This document shows positions 27,530 through 35,325 of a stretch of 35,325 bases of DNA, one piece after another. How positions within the stretch are numbered: position 1 is the stretch's first letter; each line of letters opens with the position of its first letter. The DNA lies in contig JAZNQU010000110.1 in NCBI GenBank assembly GCA_045590315.1, forward strand, positions 1 through 35,325, in the 5' to 3' direction. The DNA is from Eubacteriales bacterium. Lineage in GTDB: Bacteria; Bacillota; Clostridia; Oscillospirales; CAG-272. Under the pieces are notes generated by a model, which saw nothing but the letters and a program-made list of their open reading frames with translations, was not told the DNA's origin and made no database searches. A program made the translations under genes and the position numbers.

Positions 27530-27605
27530 AGGGGTATAGCTCAGTTGGTAGAGCAGCGGTCTCCAAAACCGCGTGTCCAGAGTTCGAGTCTTTGTGCCCC
27601 TGCCA
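27530..27605 (+). tRNA. trnW: tRNA-Trp (anticodon CCA), CCA-3' encoded
   Basis: Hand-folded cloverleaf. Acceptor AGGGGTA/TGCCCCT, D arm GCTC/GAGC, anticodon stem GCGGT/ACCGC with loop CTCCAAA, T arm CAGAG-TTCGAGT-CTTTG, 76 nt. Confidence 0.9.
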
Positions 27606-27609
27606 TCAG

Positions 27610-27654
27610 AAACACCGAAGATCCTTGATTTATAAAGGAGCTCGGTGTTTTTTG
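27610..27654 (+). terminator. probable terminator after tRNA-Trp
   Basis: AAACACCGA (27610-27618) pairs with TCGGTGTTT (27642-27650), followed by a T-run. The loop is unusually long. Confidence 0.5.
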
Positions 27655-27765
27655 ATTTCGGATAAGAATTAAAACGATCAATATAGCGTTTTTTGCTTGC
27701 TTTTACTCGTTTTTCTGACTCTATTTTGTAAAAAGACAATGCTGATATGCAACTTATAAAAATTT

Positions 27766-27801
27766 CTTGACTAATTATACTATCTTGACTAATTATACTA
27801 T
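27766..27801 (+). repeat. perfect tandem duplication of an 18-bp unit (CTTGACTAATTATACTAT x2)
   Basis: Read directly: 27766-27783 equals 27784-27801. Confidence 0.95.
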
Positions 27802-27933
27802 ATTGAGCGTAAAAATGTCAATAAGAAATATAAAGTTTAACAATGTAAAACAGCGAAATTTGTTAACAATGAAAGTTTTAGCCAACTTCAGTGACATATA
27901 ATTGCTTGTTTTTTTATTTTATAATAAAAAGTA

Positions 27934-27973
27934 TTGATATTTCGTCGGAATTAGTGTATAATATTTCCGACGA
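27934..27973 (+). promoter_or_regulatory. promoter of the abiE/hsd unit with a flanking inverted repeat (putative AbiEi operator)
   Basis: TTGATA (27934-27939), 17-nt spacer, TATAAT (27957-27962). A perfect 9-bp inverted repeat, TCGTCGGAA (27942-27950) / TTCCGACGA (27965-27973), brackets the -10 box. Confidence 0.55.
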
Positions 27974-27982
27974 GGTGATGAT

Positions 27983-28597
27983 ATGAAACGGAATATATCT
28001 TTAAATCGAATTGAAGAGAGAATTCGCAACTCGAAAAAGGGTACTATTTTTCTTACTTCTGACTTTGCGGATTTAGCATCATCGGATTCTGCCAACAGAG
28101 CGCTTCTGCGTCTTGAAGAAGCGGGACTTATTCGCAGGATCCTTTTCGGCGTTTACGAATACCCTGATTATAATGAATTTTTAAATGAATATATTGAACC
28201 TTCTCCCGATATGGTCGCACATACATTAGCAAGAAAATTTGGCTGGACTATCGTTCCCTGCGGAGATACTGCACTAAATATGCTCGGACTTTCTACTCAG
28301 GTTCCGGCAGTCTGGAACTATGTGAGCGACGGAACGTATAAAGAATATACTTACGGTAAAACAGTAATCAAATTCAAACGCACGACCAACAAAGAAATTT
28401 CAAAAATTTCATATAAAACCGCGCTTGTAATTCAGGCGTTGAAAGCGCTCGGTAAAGAAAACATCACAGGCGAGATTGTGGGTAAAATCGCAGCAAGTAC
28501 TACGAAAGATGAAAAATCAGCGATGTTCGCTGAAGCCAAATACTCAACATCGTGGATATACGATATTATAAAAGAAATTTGCGGAGGGGCAAAATGA
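27983..28597 (+). CDS. abiEi: AbiEi-like (DUF6088-type) type IV toxin-antitoxin antitoxin / transcriptional regulator
   Basis: N-terminal winged-helix-like segment (ANRALLRLEEAGLIRRILFGVYEYP). About 200 aa, immediately upstream of and overlapping (ATGA) an AbiEii toxin gene. Confidence 0.7.
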   Translation: MKRNISLNRIEERIRNSKKGTIFLTSDFADLASSDSANRALLRLEEAGLIRRILFGVYEYPDYNEFLNEYIEPSPDMVAHTLARKFGWTIVPCGDTALNMLGLSTQVPAVWNYVSDGTYKEYTYGKTVIKFKRTTNKEISKISYKTALVIQALKALGKENITGEIVGKIAASTTKDEKSAMFAEAKYSTSWIYDIIKEICGGAK

Positions 28598-29604
28598 GAA
28601 ATATAGCAACCATACCGGCTCGTGACCGTGAGGCGTTGTTCCGTAATACTGCCGCTAAAATGGGTATGAGCGAAGCAATAATTGAAAAAGATTTTTGGGT
28701 ATGCTATATGCTCGACTATCTTTTTCACCGCTGTGAGTGGAAGGAAAACCTTGCGTTCAAGGGTGGTACAAGCCTTTCCAAAGCATATGGGCTTATCGAG
28801 CGCTTTTCGGAAGACATTGACTTAATTCTCGACTGGCGCATCCTCGGCTATGATATTGACGAGCCCTGGGAAGAGCGCAGTAATACAAAACAGGATATTT
28901 TCAATAAAGAAGCAAACACAAAAGCGGAAGAATTCTTGCGTGAAACATTTTTGCCTGCTTTGTCTGCGGATCTTGTTGCCGAGCTTGGCGACGGTGTGAG
29001 GTGCTTCATCGACCCCGATGATGCACAGACGGTGAAGATTGCATATCCGAATAGCTTTTCGGATATGTCGATTCTTCAGGAGATTCGACTCGAAATCGGT
29101 GCGCTTGCCGCGTGGACCCCGGCAAAGACGGCTACTATCACACCGTATGCTGCGGAGAAATATGCGCGCGTATTCACACAACCGACTACCGAAATATTGA
29201 CCGTTCTGCCCGAGCGAACATTCTGGGAGAAGGTCACAATCCTACATAGAGAAGCATTCAGAGAAGAAAACAGAGCTTTCCCTACGAGGTATTCAAGACA
29301 TTATTATGACTTGTACCGTATGGCGCAGACAAAAGTCAAGGAAAACGCATTGGCAGATGCGGACCTGCTCACGCGGGTAGTAGACTTCAAGGATAAGTTC
29401 TATCGTTGCCCGTGGGCGAGATATGACCTCGCTAAGCGTGGCACAATGCGCCTGATGCCACCCGATTACAACCTTGATAAGCTCCGCGACGACTATGATC
29501 ATATGCAGAATATGCTCTTTGGAGACAAGCCGAGCTTTGAGGAGATTATGGACGGGATAAGGAAGCTTGAGCAAGAAATGAACAGTTTAGCAGAAGGTAG
29601 GTAA
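28594..29604 (+). CDS. abiEii: nucleotidyltransferase AbiEii/AbiGii toxin family protein (DUF1814)
   Basis: Hallmark FKGGTSLSKAYGLIERFSEDIDL motif. GGAGGGG SD lies upstream of ATG 28594, which overlaps the abiEi stop (ATGA). Confidence 0.85.
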   Translation: MRNIATIPARDREALFRNTAAKMGMSEAIIEKDFWVCYMLDYLFHRCEWKENLAFKGGTSLSKAYGLIERFSEDIDLILDWRILGYDIDEPWEERSNTKQDIFNKEANTKAEEFLRETFLPALSADLVAELGDGVRCFIDPDDAQTVKIAYPNSFSDMSILQEIRLEIGALAAWTPAKTATITPYAAEKYARVFTQPTTEILTVLPERTFWEKVTILHREAFREENRAFPTRYSRHYYDLYRMAQTKVKENALADADLLTRVVDFKDKFYRCPWARYDLAKRGTMRLMPPDYNLDKLRDDYDHMQNMLFGDKPSFEEIMDGIRKLEQEMNSLAEGR

Positions 29605-29609
29605 TAGAA

Positions 29610-32054
29610 ATGGCAATCAAAAAGAATGAATTATATAGCTCCTTGTGGGCAAGTTGCGATAAATTGCGCGGAGGTATGGATGCCTCGCAATACAAGGATT
29701 ACATTTTAACATTATTGTTCGTCAAATACGTAACCGACAAATTCAAGGGTGTAAAATATGCTGATATCACTGTCCCCGAGGGCGGTAGCTTTGACGATCT
29801 TGTTGCAATCAAAAATGATCCTAACATTGGTGAAAAGATGGATAAGGTTATTGCCAAGCTTGCAGAAGCCGGCAATAACAATTTGACAGGGGTTATTACC
29901 AACGCCCATTTCAACGACGAGTCCAAATTGGGTAAAGGTCAGGAAATGGTTGATAAACTCACAGGACTTATTGCGATCTTCCAACGTCCTGAATTTGATT
30001 TCAAAAACAACAAGGCAGCAGGTGACGATATTCTTGGTGATGCGTATGAGTATTTGATGCGCAATTTTGCAACCGAAAGCGGCAAAAGCAAAGGACAATT
30101 TTATACCCCTGCCGAGGTTTCCCGTATTCTTGCCAAGGTGATTGGTATTGACAAGGTGGATGATCCCAATACATCGGTTTATGACCCTGCGTGCGGTTCA
30201 GGTTCACTGTTGATTCGCGCGGCTGACGAAGCACCGATTGAGGTTGCTATTTACGGTCAGGAAAAGGAAATTACTACAGCCGGTCTTGCAAAGATGAACC
30301 TTGTTCTTCATAATAAGGCAACAGGTGAAATCTACGCAGGCAACACCTTCTCTGACCCTCACTATAAGGATGATAAGGACGATTCTGTTCTCCGCCGTTT
30401 TGACTTTGCGGTTGCAAATCCTCCGTTCTCACTTAAAAACTGGATGGACGGATTAAAGGATTATGGTCGATTCTCGGGCTACGGCGATACGCCGCCCGAA
30501 AAGAATGGTGACTTTGCATGGCTTTTGCACATTCTCAAATCCCTCAAATCTACAGGTAAAGCAGCGGTTATTCTGCCTCACGGTGTGCTGTTCAGAGGCA
30601 ATGCCGAGGCAACGATCCGCAAATCCATCATTGATAAGGGATATATCAAAGGCATTATTGGTTTGCCTGCAAACCTTTTCTATGGTACAGGTATTCCTGC
30701 GTGTATCATCGTTATTGATAAATCCGATGCGGACGAGCGTACCGGTATCTTTATGATCGATGCAAGCCATGATTACGTTAAGGACGGCAACAAGAACCGT
30801 CTGCGCGAGCAGGACATTTATAAGATCGTTACCACCTTTAACGAGCAAATTACCACAGACCCGAAGTATGCCCGTTTTGTCCCCAATGACGAGATCAAGG
30901 TAAAGAACGATTATAGCCTCAATATCCCTCGCTATATCGATAGCTCCACCCCCGAAGATCTTCAGGATATCGAAGCACATCTGCACGGCGGCATTCCTGC
31001 CGTTGACGTCGATTCTATGGAGAGATATTGGACTCTGTTCCCGAAGCTAAAGGACAAGCTTTTCTCCCCTCTGCGTGACGGTTATTACAGGCTTAACATT
31101 GATAAGGATGATGTGCGTTCCACCGTATATGCTGATGAGGAATTTTCCGCGTATGCCGAGCGCATTGATATGGCGTTCGATGCTTGGATGAACGATGTGG
31201 ACGAAGGTCTGCGCAGCATTGATGAATTCGTAGAACTCAAGAAATACATTGTTGAGCTTTCGGAAATCCTCATTGTCAAATATGCGGACATCGAACTTGT
31301 AGACAAATATGATGTTTATCAGGTTCTTCTTTCCTATTGGTTGGAAATAATGGCTGATGATGTGTTTGTGCTTGTGCAGGACGGATATGAGGCAGGCAGA
31401 GAAACCGAGGATATTTACGAGATTTCCGAGGATAAAAAGACCAAGAAGGAAAAGAAGAAATATAAGGGTTGGGAAGGTAAGTTGATTCCCAAAGCGTTGA
31501 TCGAAGCGGCATTTTTTGCGGCTGAACGCGCGAAAATTGACGAAGCACAGGCAATTTGTGATGAAACACAAGGCAAATTGGACGAGCTTGTTGAGGAGCA
31601 TACCGCAGATGGTGGAGTTCTTGCAGATTACTTGAACGACAAGGATGCGGTGGATGCCAAAGCGGTAAATGCCAAGATCAAGGAACTGAAAAAGACTGAT
31701 CCCAGGAGTGAGGAACTTGCCATTCTTTGCGAATATGCAGCTCTTTCTACCAAGGTTAAGGAATATACCAAGCTTGTCAAGGAGCTGAACGCCGCATTGG
31801 ACGAGGCTTGTAAGGCAAAGTACGCCGAGCTGACCATTGAAGAAATCAAGGAACTTCTCGTTAACCGTAAGTGGTACTATACCATTTTTGAGGGTATCAA
31901 AGCGCTCTACGTAACCACGTCTCACGAAATTGCGGGACGTGTTGCCGAGCTTGCAGAGAGATACGAAGATACGTTGCCGAGCCTTGAAAATGAAGTAGAA
32001 TCCTATGAAGCCAAAGTCAAGGCACATCTTGAGAGGATGGGATTTGTATGGTAA
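29610..32054 (+). CDS. hsdM: type I restriction-modification system methyltransferase subunit (long form, 814 aa)
   Basis: HsdM_N-like N-terminus (LWASCDKLRGGMDASQYKDYILTLLFVKY), SAM motif I DPACGSGSLL, catalytic motif IV NPPF (FAVANPPFS), plus a roughly 330-aa charged helical C-terminal extension. Confidence 0.92.
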   Translation: MAIKKNELYSSLWASCDKLRGGMDASQYKDYILTLLFVKYVTDKFKGVKYADITVPEGGSFDDLVAIKNDPNIGEKMDKVIAKLAEAGNNNLTGVITNAHFNDESKLGKGQEMVDKLTGLIAIFQRPEFDFKNNKAAGDDILGDAYEYLMRNFATESGKSKGQFYTPAEVSRILAKVIGIDKVDDPNTSVYDPACGSGSLLIRAADEAPIEVAIYGQEKEITTAGLAKMNLVLHNKATGEIYAGNTFSDPHYKDDKDDSVLRRFDFAVANPPFSLKNWMDGLKDYGRFSGYGDTPPEKNGDFAWLLHILKSLKSTGKAAVILPHGVLFRGNAEATIRKSIIDKGYIKGIIGLPANLFYGTGIPACIIVIDKSDADERTGIFMIDASHDYVKDGNKNRLREQDIYKIVTTFNEQITTDPKYARFVPNDEIKVKNDYSLNIPRYIDSSTPEDLQDIEAHLHGGIPAVDVDSMERYWTLFPKLKDKLFSPLRDGYYRLNIDKDDVRSTVYADEEFSAYAERIDMAFDAWMNDVDEGLRSIDEFVELKKYIVELSEILIVKYADIELVDKYDVYQVLLSYWLEIMADDVFVLVQDGYEAGRETEDIYEISEDKKTKKEKKKYKGWEGKLIPKALIEAAFFAAERAKIDEAQAICDETQGKLDELVEEHTADGGVLADYLNDKDAVDAKAVNAKIKELKKTDPRSEELAILCEYAALSTKVKEYTKLVKELNAALDEACKAKYAELTIEEIKELLVNRKWYYTIFEGIKALYVTTSHEIAGRVAELAERYEDTLPSLENEVESYEAKVKAHLERMGFVW

Positions 32055-33304
32055 AGCAAGGATATAAGCAGACCGAGATTGGTGTGATCCCGGAGGATTG
32101 GGATGTACGCACATTAGAAACTCTCTATAACATAACTTCGAGCAAACGCGTTTTCCAAAGTCAGTGGAGAAAAGGTGGAATTCCTTTTTACCGCGCAAGA
32201 GAAATTGCGGTTATGAGCGAAGGCAAGCCAGCTCCAGAAGATTTATACATCGATGTAATTCTGTACGATTTGTATACTCGTCAATATGGAAGTATAAAAA
32301 AGGATGATGTGCTAATTACCGGCGTTGGTACATTAGGAAAAGTCTATGTTGTAAAAGAAAACGACCAATTCTATTTCAAAGATGGAAATATTATTTGGCT
32401 TCAGTTTAAGGGTGGTTTTTCTTCTCAATATTTAAAGCATCAATACGATATGCCGGTATTGATAAATCAGGTGTTTGGCAATGCTGGCGGAAGTACGGTG
32501 GCAACATATACAATTACAAACGCAAAATCCACTAAAGTCCCCATTCCTCCTCTTGACGAACAAGAACGCATTGCCGAGGCACTTTCGGATGTGGACAGTA
32601 TGATATCCTCGCTTGAAAAGCTGATTGCAAAGAAAAAAGCCGTCAAGCAAGGCGCAATGCAGGAACTCTTGACGGGTAAAAAGCGATTGCCTGAATTTGA
32701 TGGTGATATAAAGTACAAATCATTAGCATCGTTGTGTACCGTATTTGCGGATGGCGATTGGATAGAGTCCAAAGACCAAAGTAATGATGGTATAAGACTT
32801 ATTCAAACAGGAAATATCGGTGTAGGTAAATACTTAGATAAAACCGACAAACAAAGATTTATATCAACGGATACTTTTGATCGTCTAAAATGTTTAGAAA
32901 TCTTCGAAAACGATGTAATTGTTTCTCGTCTTCCTGAACCCGCAGGCAGAGCATGTATTTTGCCGTATTCTAACAAGCGAAGAATTACGGCTGTAGATTG
33001 CACGATTATTAGATTTGCCGACTATAACCCTATATTATTTGTTGCGTATTCTCAAACAAAACAATATCAAGACAAAGTTGATATGGCGATGGCAGGATCA
33101 ACACGGCAGAGAATAAGCAGAAAAGAATTGGGAGAAATACCGATTCCTGTTTTCCCAACGATCGAAGAGCAAAACGCACTTGCTTCAATCTTTTCCGATA
33201 TGGATAGCGAAATTGATGCCTTGGAGCAGAAGCTCGAAAAAACGCGTCAGATCAAACAAGGCATGATGCAGCAACTGCTGACCGGAAAAATTAGACTTGT
33301 ATAA
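32048..33304 (+). CDS. hsdS: type I restriction-modification system specificity subunit
   Basis: Two variable target-recognition regions separated by conserved helices: PPLDEQERIAEALSDVDSMISSLEKLIAKKKAVKQGAMQELLTGKKRL and PTIEEQNALASIFSDMDSEIDALEQKLEKTRQIKQGMMQQLLTGKIRL. 7-nt overlap with hsdM. Confidence 0.9.
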   Translation: MVKQGYKQTEIGVIPEDWDVRTLETLYNITSSKRVFQSQWRKGGIPFYRAREIAVMSEGKPAPEDLYIDVILYDLYTRQYGSIKKDDVLITGVGTLGKVYVVKENDQFYFKDGNIIWLQFKGGFSSQYLKHQYDMPVLINQVFGNAGGSTVATYTITNAKSTKVPIPPLDEQERIAEALSDVDSMISSLEKLIAKKKAVKQGAMQELLTGKKRLPEFDGDIKYKSLASLCTVFADGDWIESKDQSNDGIRLIQTGNIGVGKYLDKTDKQRFISTDTFDRLKCLEIFENDVIVSRLPEPAGRACILPYSNKRRITAVDCTIIRFADYNPILFVAYSQTKQYQDKVDMAMAGSTRQRISRKELGEIPIPVFPTIEEQNALASIFSDMDSEIDALEQKLEKTRQIKQGMMQQLLTGKIRLV

Positions 33305-33315
33305 AGGAGAATGTT

Positions 33316-35058
33316 ATGGCACGTGTTAAATGGAAGAATCAACAAACTGGAGAAAAAGCACAGTTTATTGCAGAAACGCTTAACGAAGCACTATTTAATT
33401 ATTCATTCGACTCAAATAAAGCACCAACATTAAACACTCATTTCTTTTGCGAAGACTATTTGGCCACATATGCAATGGTAAATGAAGGTATTATGCAAGA
33501 AGGAAATATGGTGCCGCTTAATGAGGAGTTTGAGCATATAGTAACAAATTCTATTTGGATGCCTGCTTGCGTTTCGCCATCGGTTTTAAATTTTCGAAAC
33601 AAACAAGGATTCTTTTGCAACATAAAAGATGATAAAAATTGCAAAAATATAGAAACAGCTAAACGATCCGAATATTATAAAGATTCTGCCAATTACATAT
33701 GTCAACTTCTGTCTTCTGACCAAGATTATTTGTCCCTTATACTAAAAGAAATTAACAATATCCTTCTGTCTTCAACATTTACGTTGGAAGAAAAAACTGT
33801 TTTGTACTTCTGTGTGCGAGAATATGTAAGTGAATTAATAAATTTGGGATATAGCAAAACGCACTTATATATGCAAGTTCAAAATAAACTGTTTAAATAT
33901 AGAACTTCCAAGGATGATGTGAAATATATAATCAAATTTTTATCTTCTTTGCAATCTTCGGAAGAAAAATATTCTGTGATATTTGGCATTTCAGATAAAG
34001 CATATTCTGAATTTGAAGGGTTGATTAACTGCGTAAGAGAAGCAGCTGAGAATGAGAAAGCATCTTTGTCTGCGAATTATGTTGTCGACACAGATAAAAT
34101 AAGGGCTTCTGACCCGGTTTCAGCATTAGAAAGTGCCAAAAAAATGATGTCTACATTTATTGACATATATAATGCGGGAATTCATGATTGCAATATGAGA
34201 ATATTTGATAATGGATTGGTGAAAGCAGAGGAAGGCGAGAATTATGTGTTGATAAACGATTCGATTAACTTACTCACCAAAAATCCTATTAAAACCAAAG
34301 AAGAACGCCAAAAATGGATAAAAGTTGCTGTTCAAAGGAATATTACTCCTTCTGTAGTTGCAGCATTTGATTTGCATAATAATGCGTTACAAATATGTGA
34401 GCCAAGTACGCAATTACTATCTCTTTGGACAATAATCGAAGTGATCATAGAAACAAAGCAAAATTTTATGAGTCGCTCCAATTATATAACCAATATTTTA
34501 TGTGATATTTTGTGCAGTACATATTTTCACCGATGTATATCTGCACTACATACTCAAATTACTCATTTTCCTGGAATTAAAGCAATCATCGACTCTGAAC
34601 CTCGCGGTAATGATACTGTTGAAAAACTTGCTTTGATTTTGAAGGATAATACAGCATTACAAACATCCTTAATTTCAAAATTGAAAAAATATCCCTTAGA
34701 AGCATATAAAATCGAGCATTTCTCTAATTTGTTCGGAAGCAAAGAACGAATGGCATCAAATATTATTAGACACTCAAATCGTTTAAGATGGCAAATTATG
34801 AGAATATATCGAAACAGATGTATGATAGTACACAATGGTAGTAATTTTCCGTATATAAACAGTATTTTGGAAAATTTGCACTTCTATATTGATGAATTGT
34901 TTGATTATATTTTGCTCAAAACAGATGTCGGTCTAAAAGATTTAGAGGCAATATTTGCATGTGCAAGGATAAAACAAAGCGAAACAGTGTCGATTTTAAG
35001 TGATAAAAAAACTACACTTAGTGATGATGAATATATTGATATGATATTCAAGTATTAA
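33316..35058 (+). CDS. uncharacterised 580-aa protein with a C-terminal HEPN-like Rx4-6H motif (putative RNase), embedded between hsdS and hsdR
   Basis: Long uninterrupted ORF with AAGGAG 6 nt upstream of the ATG. C-terminal RLRWQIMRIY-R499-N-R501-CMIV-H506-NG. No P-loop and no other recognisable motif. Very AT-rich. Confidence that it is coding is high; confidence in the HEPN assignment is moderate. Confidence 0.6.
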   Translation: MARVKWKNQQTGEKAQFIAETLNEALFNYSFDSNKAPTLNTHFFCEDYLATYAMVNEGIMQEGNMVPLNEEFEHIVTNSIWMPACVSPSVLNFRNKQGFFCNIKDDKNCKNIETAKRSEYYKDSANYICQLLSSDQDYLSLILKEINNILLSSTFTLEEKTVLYFCVREYVSELINLGYSKTHLYMQVQNKLFKYRTSKDDVKYIIKFLSSLQSSEEKYSVIFGISDKAYSEFEGLINCVREAAENEKASLSANYVVDTDKIRASDPVSALESAKKMMSTFIDIYNAGIHDCNMRIFDNGLVKAEEGENYVLINDSINLLTKNPIKTKEERQKWIKVAVQRNITPSVVAAFDLHNNALQICEPSTQLLSLWTIIEVIIETKQNFMSRSNYITNILCDILCSTYFHRCISALHTQITHFPGIKAIIDSEPRGNDTVEKLALILKDNTALQTSLISKLKKYPLEAYKIEHFSNLFGSKERMASNIIRHSNRLRWQIMRIYRNRCMIVHNGSNFPYINSILENLHFYIDELFDYILLKTDVGLKDLEAIFACARIKQSETVSILSDKKTTLSDDEYIDMIFKY

Positions 35059-35070
35059 AGGAGGAACAAA

Positions 35071-35325
35071 ATGCCTCAAATTGACCAAATAGAAAAAGAA
35101 ACACAAAACCGTGTTATAAAATTCTTTGTGGACAAGCTCCATTATACATATCTCGGCGACCTGCACGATAGTGAAAACAGCAATATCATGCAGGAGCGTC
35201 TCTATGCCTATTTGACTAACAAGGGTGGCTATTCGGACAAACTGGCTCGCCGCGCGATTGATGAGCTTGTACGCACTGCGGGCAACCTCCAGCACGGTCT
35301 TTATGATGCCAATAAAGAGGTTTAC
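35071..35325 (+). CDS. hsdR: type I restriction endonuclease subunit R, N-terminal 85 codons (3' end outside the window)
   Basis: Not in the ORF track because there is no stop in the window. AAGGAGG lies 6 nt upstream of ATG 35071, and the frame is open to the window end. The N-terminus (EKETQNRVIKFFVDKLHYTYLGDL....NSNI....L...L...GY) resembles HsdR N-terminal regions, and it completes the hsdM-hsdS set. Confidence 0.7.
   Translation, partial: MPQIDQIEKETQNRVIKFFVDKLHYTYLGDLHDSENSNIMQERLYAYLTNKGGYSDKLARRAIDELVRTAGNLQHGLYDANKEVY

Follow-up and report, generated by a model that had tools for sequence, protein, structure and literature searches.

How defence islands are regulated is far less understood than what their effectors do. 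The antitoxin AbiEi represses the promoter of its own operon, P_abiE, via inverted repeats (PMC3985639). Genes embedded within type I restriction-modification (RM) loci have been described (bioRxiv 10.1101/2024.01.29.577857), and ApeA, a HEPN nuclease that targets the tRNA anticodon loop in abortive infection, was noted in RM operons in 2013 (PMC3710099). In enteropathogenic E. coli, the repressor RptR controls a type I RM island with an embedded DarTG from sites over the -10 element, and hsdM rises more than 15-fold on infection (PMC12255303). These four points are established. Here we describe a locus in which an AbiE pair, a type I RM system and an ApeA homologue follow one another on the same strand. 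It lies at the 3′ end of a 35,325-nt stretch (the window) of a Eubacteriales bacterium of the CAG-272 lineage (assembly GCA_045590315.1, contig JAZNQU010000110.1, positions 1-35,325 of the forward strand), and its features are as follows.

27934-27962, + strand: P_abiE, a sigma-70-type promoter with -35 TTGATA (27934-27939), a 17-nt spacer and -10 TATAAT (27957-27962); 11/12 consensus match
27942-27973: palindromic operator, a candidate AbiEi site, with arms TCGTCGGAA (27942-27950) and TTCCGACGA (27965-27973); perfect over 9 bp and extendable to 12 bp
27983-28597, + strand: abiEi, 204 aa; Pfam DUF6088 (PF19570, 3e-39), PADLOC AbiEi (5e-62), weak AbiEi_4 match over residues 18-61
28594-29604, + strand: abiEii, 336-aa DUF1814 nucleotidyltransferase toxin; PF08843 (7.8e-39), PADLOC AbiEii (2e-109)
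29610-32054, + strand: hsdM, 814-aa long-form type I methyltransferase; N6_Mtase (1e-99), HsdM_N (8e-14), full-length PADLOC MTase_I
32048-33304, + strand: hsdS, 418-aa specificity subunit; Methylase_S in two stretches, PADLOC Specificity_I (4e-89)
33316-35058, + strand: apeA (open reading frame ORF5), 580-aa HEPN tRNA anticodon-nuclease homologue, recognized by PDB sequence matches
33313-35070, + strand: apeA cassette, ORF5 plus the trailing Shine-Dalgarno sequence of hsdR
35071-35325, + strand: 5′ part of hsdR (85 codons), the gene running past the window end; PADLOC REase_I (2e-14)

We conceive of the locus as a chromosomal defence operon built of three exchangeable modules. The first would be an AbiE cassette made up of abiEi and abiEii behind a sigma-70-type promoter whose -10 is covered by a palindromic operator, and lacking a terminator. 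The second would be a type I RM system of a long-HsdM family (hsdM-hsdS and hsdR), with an M48-type peptidase gene after hsdR in relatives. The third would be an ApeA HEPN anticodon-nuclease cassette, fitted precisely into the interval from the hsdS stop to the hsdR ribosome-binding site. Transcription would start at P_abiE near 27969 and read through all genes, and dimeric AbiEi on the palindrome would repress the promoter. The RM genes and apeA would thereby be held low and self-limited, and would rise together once AbiEi is lost or titrated, for example by infection or on entry into a naive cell. We put the probability at about 0.6 that the genes form one polycistronic unit from P_abiE, autorepressed by AbiEi, with RM and ApeA at least partly under AbiEi. 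That P_abiE is the sole promoter is somewhat short of an even bet. What the sequences show is the layout, the conserved and covarying promoter and operator, the tie of operator class to the recognition helix, the repeated occurrence of the cassette in front of defence genes, and the ApeA identity of the cargo; that AbiEi binds, that transcripts continue into hsdM and past it, and that the genes respond to infection, we infer.

In overall order, the locus is most like RptR-RMS-DarTG-M48 (RRDM) of enteropathogenic E. coli (PMC12255303). In both, a regulator comes first and is followed by hsdM, hsdS, an abortive cargo, hsdR and an M48/YgjP-type peptidase gene (here in relatives), behind a single front promoter whose operator overlaps the -10. 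On the other hand, the head is a 9-kDa RptR there and a two-gene type IV toxin-antitoxin pair here. The operator consists of three TAGCTA repeats there and of one 9-12 bp palindrome here, the P_abiE region having no TAGCTA repeats. The cargo is DarTG2 there and ApeA here, and the present host belongs to gut Clostridia, with a locus known from sequence alone. The likeness is one of architecture only, and the two are set apart by gene anatomy and promoter reading.

The head itself resembles AbiE of S. agalactiae and Lactococcus (PMC3985639) in the 4-nt abiEi/abiEii overlap, the antitoxin-first order, the winged-helix fold of AbiEi, the DUF1814 nucleotidyltransferase toxin and the inverted repeats in the promoter. 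It differs in that AbiEi here belongs to the DUF6088 family, the palindrome has shorter arms and its centre on the -10, and the operon, bicistronic there, continues here without a terminator into RM genes.

The preliminary description of this DNA had also likened AbiEi to the C-proteins of type II RM systems, which delay restriction. Both kinds of protein bind DNA, and for both the gene lies upstream within the unit and the promoter has a palindromic site. However, C-proteins activate and then repress, delaying the nuclease relative to the methylase, whereas AbiEi is known only as a repressor and the methylase and nuclease here would share one promoter. With a plain autorepressor in first place, the whole operon, and hsdR with it, is expressed in a burst on entry into a naive cell. 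A C-protein-like delay by AbiEi was therefore rejected on mechanism, and low basal expression with joint induction on repressor loss, on the model of RptR, seems the better functional guess.

All six genes are co-directional, and re-measurement returned exactly the five junction lengths given in the preliminary description (-4, 5, -7, 11 and 12 nt). abiEi and abiEii overlap at an ATGA, hsdM starts after a 5-nt gap (29605-29609), hsdM overlaps hsdS, and apeA is separated from hsdS by 33305-33315 and from hsdR by 35059-35070. Every junction of the unit has its own Shine-Dalgarno sequence, that of hsdM lying within the 3′ end of abiEii. The abiEii start at ATG 28594 is backed by GGAGGGG upstream and by relatives aligning from residue 1. 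The AbiEii translation has the Pol-beta nucleotidyltransferase motifs FKGGTS and EDIDL; HsdM has DPACGSG, the S-adenosylmethionine motif, and NPPF; and HsdS has two target-recognition domains. In relatives, HsdR homologues are full length (1031-1033 aa) and a gene for an M48/YgjP-like peptidase overlaps the hsdR stop. Exact-sequence contig look-ups with the window's ApeA and AbiEii gave no match; hsdR past codon 85 and whatever closes the unit on its 3′ side were visible in relatives only. With the peptidase gene included, the complete unit probably has seven genes. The tight packing of the single transcription unit first proposed was thus borne out, and its count of six probably was not.

P_abiE is the best plus-strand consensus match in the unit or just upstream, in agreement with the consensus promoter noted earlier in front of abiEi. 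The centre of the palindrome coincides with the 5′ edge of the -10, and its right arm overlaps the expected transcription start. Because the left arm lies 5′ of that start, the palindrome is taken as a DNA site and an RNA hairpin was ruled out. Perfect operator half-sites occur in the 35-kb window only as these two at P_abiE; inside the unit, a search for further half-sites returned only one-mismatch hits at chance level.

Conservation of the operator was examined at 80 loci with AbiEii relatives at 60-90% identity, which gave 49 distinct promoter regions aligned without gaps. Both the TATAAT and the TTG of the -35 show no or almost no variation and keep the same register in all 49. The palindrome also stays in a fixed position while its arms change, with 29 distinct left arms and 21 operator classes. 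Its arms pair in 90.1% of cells, as compared with 73.7% in shuffles (0/500 reach 90.1%) and 39-56% in slid controls, and 112 cells have changed on both sides versus 31.6 in shuffles, all of these being values inflated by shared ancestry. Moreover, the palindrome centre was picked for each sequence, although the -35 and -10 still share their register in all 49 sequences kept.

The protein side of this pattern points to AbiEi, the only DNA-binding protein common to all these AbiE loci. Its AlphaFold2 model (predicted local distance difference test score 89.7) carries a winged helix at its N terminus, and the best PDB folds for the model are S. agalactiae AbiEi (6y8q, E 8e-5) and M. tuberculosis Rv2827c (1zel); a sequence-only PDB search with AbiEi gave no match. 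The AbiEi columns with the highest mutual information on operator class, a measure that shared ancestry likewise inflates, are 39, 42, 35 and 40, and all four fall in the predicted recognition helix (about 34-46). In addition, the operator and the first ~55 abiEi codons (27983-28148) form the most divergent part of the AbiE cassette. Homology by blastn to six relatives (L022-L024, L026, L028 and L062) begins only at 28109-28166, after about codon 56, the rest of the cassette being 70-78% identical.

Despite the shared ancestry, the covariation pattern fits the autorepression shown experimentally for AbiEi. From sequence comparison, AbiEi very likely binds the operator, and autorepression at P_abiE is a well-supported prediction. 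As a separate observation, a complete Lachnospiraceae genome (AP025573.1) has two stand-alone AbiE copies (L074 and L080) that share the operator ATGTCACGAAT; therefore, operator diversity does not always serve to keep copies in the same cell apart.

Consensus scanning and junction folding revealed no convincing terminator or hairpin inside the unit, as the preliminary description had stated. Terminator-like sites number 7 on both strands against 6.2 ± 2.4 in shuffled sequence, and two weak plus-strand ones (30660 and 33125) lie inside open reading frames. The four junctions 3′ of abiEi/abiEii fold no better than shuffled sequence (z scores of +2.1, +1.9, -0.45 and -1.06).

Among the 80 genome loci, hsdM directly follows AbiE in 3 (L025, L028 and L062), and the window is a fourth case. 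The long-form hsdM lies 17, 6 and 15 nt 3′ of abiEii in these three, as compared with 5 nt in the window; the gap is 6 nt in L145 and 53 nt in L103 and L104. More broadly, at least 17 of the 77 loci have an RM or defence gene in the same orientation directly 3′ of AbiE, with a junction of -4 to 69 nt. Among the downstream partners are further HsdM and HsdR proteins, N6 and N4 methylases, a type IIG-like enzyme, GmrSD, DruA, PLD-SNF2 and SNF2 helicases, GIY-YIG/RAMA, JetD_C and DUF4011. A junction terminator was found in none of those 17 loci (0/17), whereas stand-alone AbiE copies of a 61-63% subclade have, at 12 loci, a terminator with a 13-14 bp stem about 20 nt past the stop. In the L072 subclade, an apparent 126-aa reading frame 20 nt after abiEii was rejected as a gene, for it covers a 14-bp stem terminator.

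The preliminary description had asked how often abiE sits directly upstream of hsdM, and seen from hsdM there is no general rule. Fifty metagenome loci were anchored on hsdM, 40 of them with upstream sequence. The gene 5′ of hsdM is abiEii in only 3 of the 40, so abiE does not normally precede hsdM; it is a PDDEXK_9 ATPase in 10 (at 22 nt) and a small Cro/C1 helix-turn-helix (HTH) gene in another 10 (at 0-42 nt). The hsdM Shine-Dalgarno sequence sits in the 3′ end of whatever gene precedes.

The other heads merit description. Relatives without AbiE have a 70-aa Cro/C1-type HTH (HTH_26) gene with its own promoter, which ends 0-42 nt, mostly about 25 nt, 5′ of hsdM (L001:1185-1397, L009:3881-4096, L108 and L120-L132); in the L120 group, a palindrome TCAAAGTT-N4-AACTTTGA lies over its -35. 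The HTH_26 gene looks like another regulator-first head of the same RM family. Ten relatives (L004:3722-5575 and nine metagenome loci, including L106, L107 and L109) have a 617-aa AAA-ATPase_like/PDDEXK_9 gene 22 nt 5′ of hsdM, which is a third kind of head module. As for AbiEii, at least 8000 family members score below E 1e-10. Relatives at 68-81% (L034, L049 and L060; 63% for L096) come from assemblies labelled Akkermansia, Dehalococcoidia, Gastranaerophilaceae and Spirochaetes, a spread that points to wide horizontal transfer or binning contamination.

Expression could instead be partly independent. P_abiE would then drive abiEi-abiEii with some read-through, and the RM genes and/or apeA would be transcribed mainly from internal promoters within coding sequence, such as the end of abiEii, hsdS or apeA, with little control by AbiEi. 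Promoter-like sites do occur inside the unit at 29474-29502 (9/12, 108 nt 5′ of hsdM), 31974-32001 (9/12) and 34160-34188 (10/12). EcoKI-type systems have separate promoters for hsdMS and hsdR, and some hsdM relatives have a free upstream region of their own. Yet the total of 30 promoter-like sites is only about 2 standard deviations above shuffles (21.8 ± 4.2), and the 29474 site has a poor -10 (GATCAT) in a stretch constrained by its peptide (DYDHMQNM). Furthermore, heads (AbiE, HTH_26 and the PDDEXK_9 ATPase) and cargos vary while junctions stay within 53 nt (mostly 0-25 nt), and therefore each unrelated gene would need its own internal promoter. We regard partly independent expression as rather unlikely.

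The slot between hsdS and hsdR bears on both readings. Its present occupant, ORF5, had been called HEPN-like in the preliminary description, which was correct and can be sharpened. ORF5 had no match in Pfam, PADLOC, NCBIfam or PHROGs, and the PDB sequence search alone named it, with matches to Ec3ApeA (7.5e-25) and Ec2ApeA (5e-23, residues 16-578 against 19-581). Its C-terminal HEPN domain has the catalytic motif R501-x4-H506, which aligns with R502 and H507 of Ec2ApeA (RIYRNRCMIVH against RIYRTRNLIVH); the substitution R502A abolishes defence by Ec2ApeA. By this alignment and motif, ORF5 is a full-length ApeA homologue.

The described Ec1-Ec4ApeA (PDB 9hxi and 9hxj; bioRxiv 10.64898/2026.01.26.701840) share full-length similarity, the HEPN motif and pocket residues with ORF5. 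They differ in being only about 20-25% identical by eye and in being treated as single-gene systems, whereas ORF5 is embedded in a type I RM operon. Described ApeA forms a doughnut-shaped oligomer, and Ec2ApeA is turned on by 5′-phosphorylated deoxydinucleotides. Of the 11 ligand-pocket residues listed for Ec2ApeA, 7 are identical in ORF5 (Ec2ApeA/ORF5: E74/E71, R152/R168, Y401/Y403, H487/H486, R490/R489, Q494/Q493 and Y525/Y524), two are changed (S40/P37 and R148/L163) and two are conservative (T36/S33 and Y469/H468).

ApeA homologues at 98%, 58% and 55% identity likewise occupy this slot in loci of the same long-HsdM RM family, and one at 48% occupies the hsdS|hsdR slot of a different type I family; another at 43% stands alone. 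In AbiE-headed relatives, the slot holds other cargo, namely GmrSD/HEC-06 (L025), DUF2971/PDC-S31 (L028) and PDC-M43A/B (L062). It can also be empty, as a metatranscriptome-library contig of a relative joins 33312 directly to 35071, and for this reason the cassette limits are set at 33313-35070. The guanine-cytosine (GC) fraction falls from about 0.45 to 0.31-0.35 across apeA, and the flanks of the cassette leave no room for a promoter or terminator. Because the slot cargo varies while the hsdR ribosome-binding site is conserved, hsdR is most simply read from upstream.

The same slot holds prrC in EcoprrI and darTG in RRDM, and this raises a coupling at the protein level. ApeA would be restrained by, or would sense, the type I RM complex and act as a back-up when restriction is inhibited, the layout serving stoichiometric co-production. 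The presence of ApeA homologues at this position in at least two distinct type I families, and the embedding of ApeA in RM operons noted in 2013 (PMC3710099), would suit such a coupling. EcoprrI, a type Ic system, indeed has a HEPN tRNA anticodon nuclease gene at this very position. However, the N-domain of PrrC is an ABC-ATPase and the RM complex silences the protein, whereas ApeA differs in its N-terminal and middle domains, which are unrelated, has a pocket for a small molecule and is not known to interact with Hsd proteins. ORF5 has no ATPase or other Pfam domain and aligns with ApeA instead, so that a PrrC/RloC identity was rejected. E. coli ApeA proteins are single-gene systems activated by a small molecule, most of the Ec2ApeA pocket residues are retained here, close ApeA homologues occur alone without RM (L018-L021), and the slot takes unrelated cargos. 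PrrC-like coupling is consequently quite improbable.

Transcripts were sought in public metatranscriptomes. Sequences of abiEi-abiEii, hsdM and apeA occur in RNA libraries, and contigs from them span abiEi/abiEii and, in relatives, also hsdM/hsdS and the empty-slot hsdS/hsdR junction. Co-transcription from P_abiE is still an inference. In some RNA runs, apeA fragments 99-100% identical appear while abiE and hsdM are absent at 93% likeness. This was rejected as evidence of an internal promoter, as the source strain may be like L001 (apeA 97%, hsdM 86%).

Several points weigh against the single AbiEi-controlled unit, in addition to the ancestry and the choice of palindrome centre mentioned above. 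No RNA-library contig spanning abiEii/hsdM, hsdS/apeA or apeA/hsdR was found among the contigs, which are short and come from relatives only, and libraries labelled RNA can contain DNA. The best internal promoter-like site, that at 34160-34188 in apeA, reaches 10/12, the remainder 9/12. Such sites are frequent in AT-rich coding DNA, and some within the unit may be active; weak internal promoters can also escape a consensus scan. At 27 of the 36 loci that lack a close co-directional downstream gene, the simple terminator rule gave no hit, and the terminator contrast is thus clean for one subclade only. Finally, about 8 of the 40 hsdM relatives have a divergent gene on the opposite strand upstream with 77-295 nt of free DNA, so this RM family can run on its own promoter and needs no head module. 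For the proposal that AbiEi controls the RM and HEPN genes, as first put forward, the covariation of operator and recognition helix and the recurrence of a terminator-less head speak in favour; the missing abiEii/hsdM transcript counts against it, and against the single transcription unit likewise.

The unit is, by its identities to relatives, a mosaic. From the promoter through hsdM it is about 80% identical to L025. For hsdM, the DNA identity to L001 and L009 is 86% and sets in at 29601-29610, which is its ATG or slightly 5′ of it; apeA-hsdR shares 97% identity with L001. In hsdS, only the central (~32546-32706) and C-terminal (~33161-33310) regions match relatives and both target-recognition domains differ, as would be expected from recognition-domain shuffling.

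The mosaic and the GC step at apeA would also suit linkage without shared regulation, in which AbiE stabilises the island, close packing aids co-transfer and co-transcription is incidental. Plasmid stabilisation by AbiE is known (PMC3985639), and embedding has been proposed to couple the horizontal transfer of systems (bioRxiv 10.1101/2024.01.29.577857). This account leaves unexplained why the AbiE clade always comes first in the string with its own promoter, why junctions before defence genes are terminator-free when the stand-alone subclade has a terminator, and why abiEii has the Shine-Dalgarno sequence of hsdM incorporated in its 3′ end. Linkage in place of shared regulation is improbable in our estimate, and it does not exclude the AbiEi-controlled operon.

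Other rearrangements of the RM genes were observed. Several metagenome contigs diverge exactly at 32055. In L113, L116, L115, L131 and L148, hsdM is in two frames or is fused to the 3′ end of hsdR, and these look like forms of the RM system that have decayed or suffered deletions. A 4.1-kb metagenome contig (L028:6917, run X35) matches abiEi-abiEii and leaves 25 nt before the abiEii stop into unrelated sequence. The L028-type AbiE cassette thus has a different 3′ partner there, which is consistent with module exchange at the 3′ end of abiEii.

The remaining window is ordinary chromosome (RecN, DnaE, a penicillin-binding protein, pyruvate kinase and ComEC), and an Rfam scan detected tRNA and nothing else. 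Two features bound the unit on its 5′ side.

27530-27605: tRNA-Trp, upstream of the unit
27605-27660, + strand: intrinsic terminator after tRNA-Trp, a hairpin of -24.6 kcal/mol (z -5.1) with stem arms at 27610-27618 and 27642-27650, followed by UUUUUUGAUUU

Because this strong terminator insulates the 5′ side, read-through from upstream is unlikely. Between it and P_abiE lies a 270-nt AT-rich spacer (27660-27930) with a tandem duplication of CTTGACTAATTATACTAT (~27767-27802) and a perfect 12/12 minus-strand promoter match (27821 to 27792) that points toward the tRNA. Neither a gene nor an Rfam family accounts for the content of the spacer. Homology to AbiE relatives begins only at 27926; by blastn, it begins at 27926-27932 for L025, L029 and L049, immediately 5′ of the -35.

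In the searchable literature, whose coverage is incomplete, we found no description of an AbiE or other toxin-antitoxin cassette as a recurrent terminator-less head of RM or defence operons, nor of matched operator/recognition-helix diversification in AbiE. If co-transcription is incidental, the locus simply adds another case of a type I RM operon with defence genes placed inside it. If AbiEi controls RM and ApeA, a toxin-antitoxin autoregulatory loop would double as the expression controller of unrelated immune systems, and the natural operator/helix pairs would be a ready set of orthogonal repressors.

A wider reading, tentative and on the unlikely side, is that AbiE cassettes of this clade are portable self-repressed promoter modules with matched helix and operator that head varied defence genes. 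Loss or titration of the antitoxin in infection would then both free AbiEii and induce the downstream genes. If true, the module would plug in before type I, II and IIG RM, GmrSD, DruA and SNF2/PLD helicases, and in the present locus it would bring two tRNA-directed abortive effectors (AbiEii and ApeA) and restriction under one input. Because AbiE and RM rank with the most abundant defence systems of rumen genomes (PMC13356809), the arrangement could affect a sizeable share of gut Clostridia.

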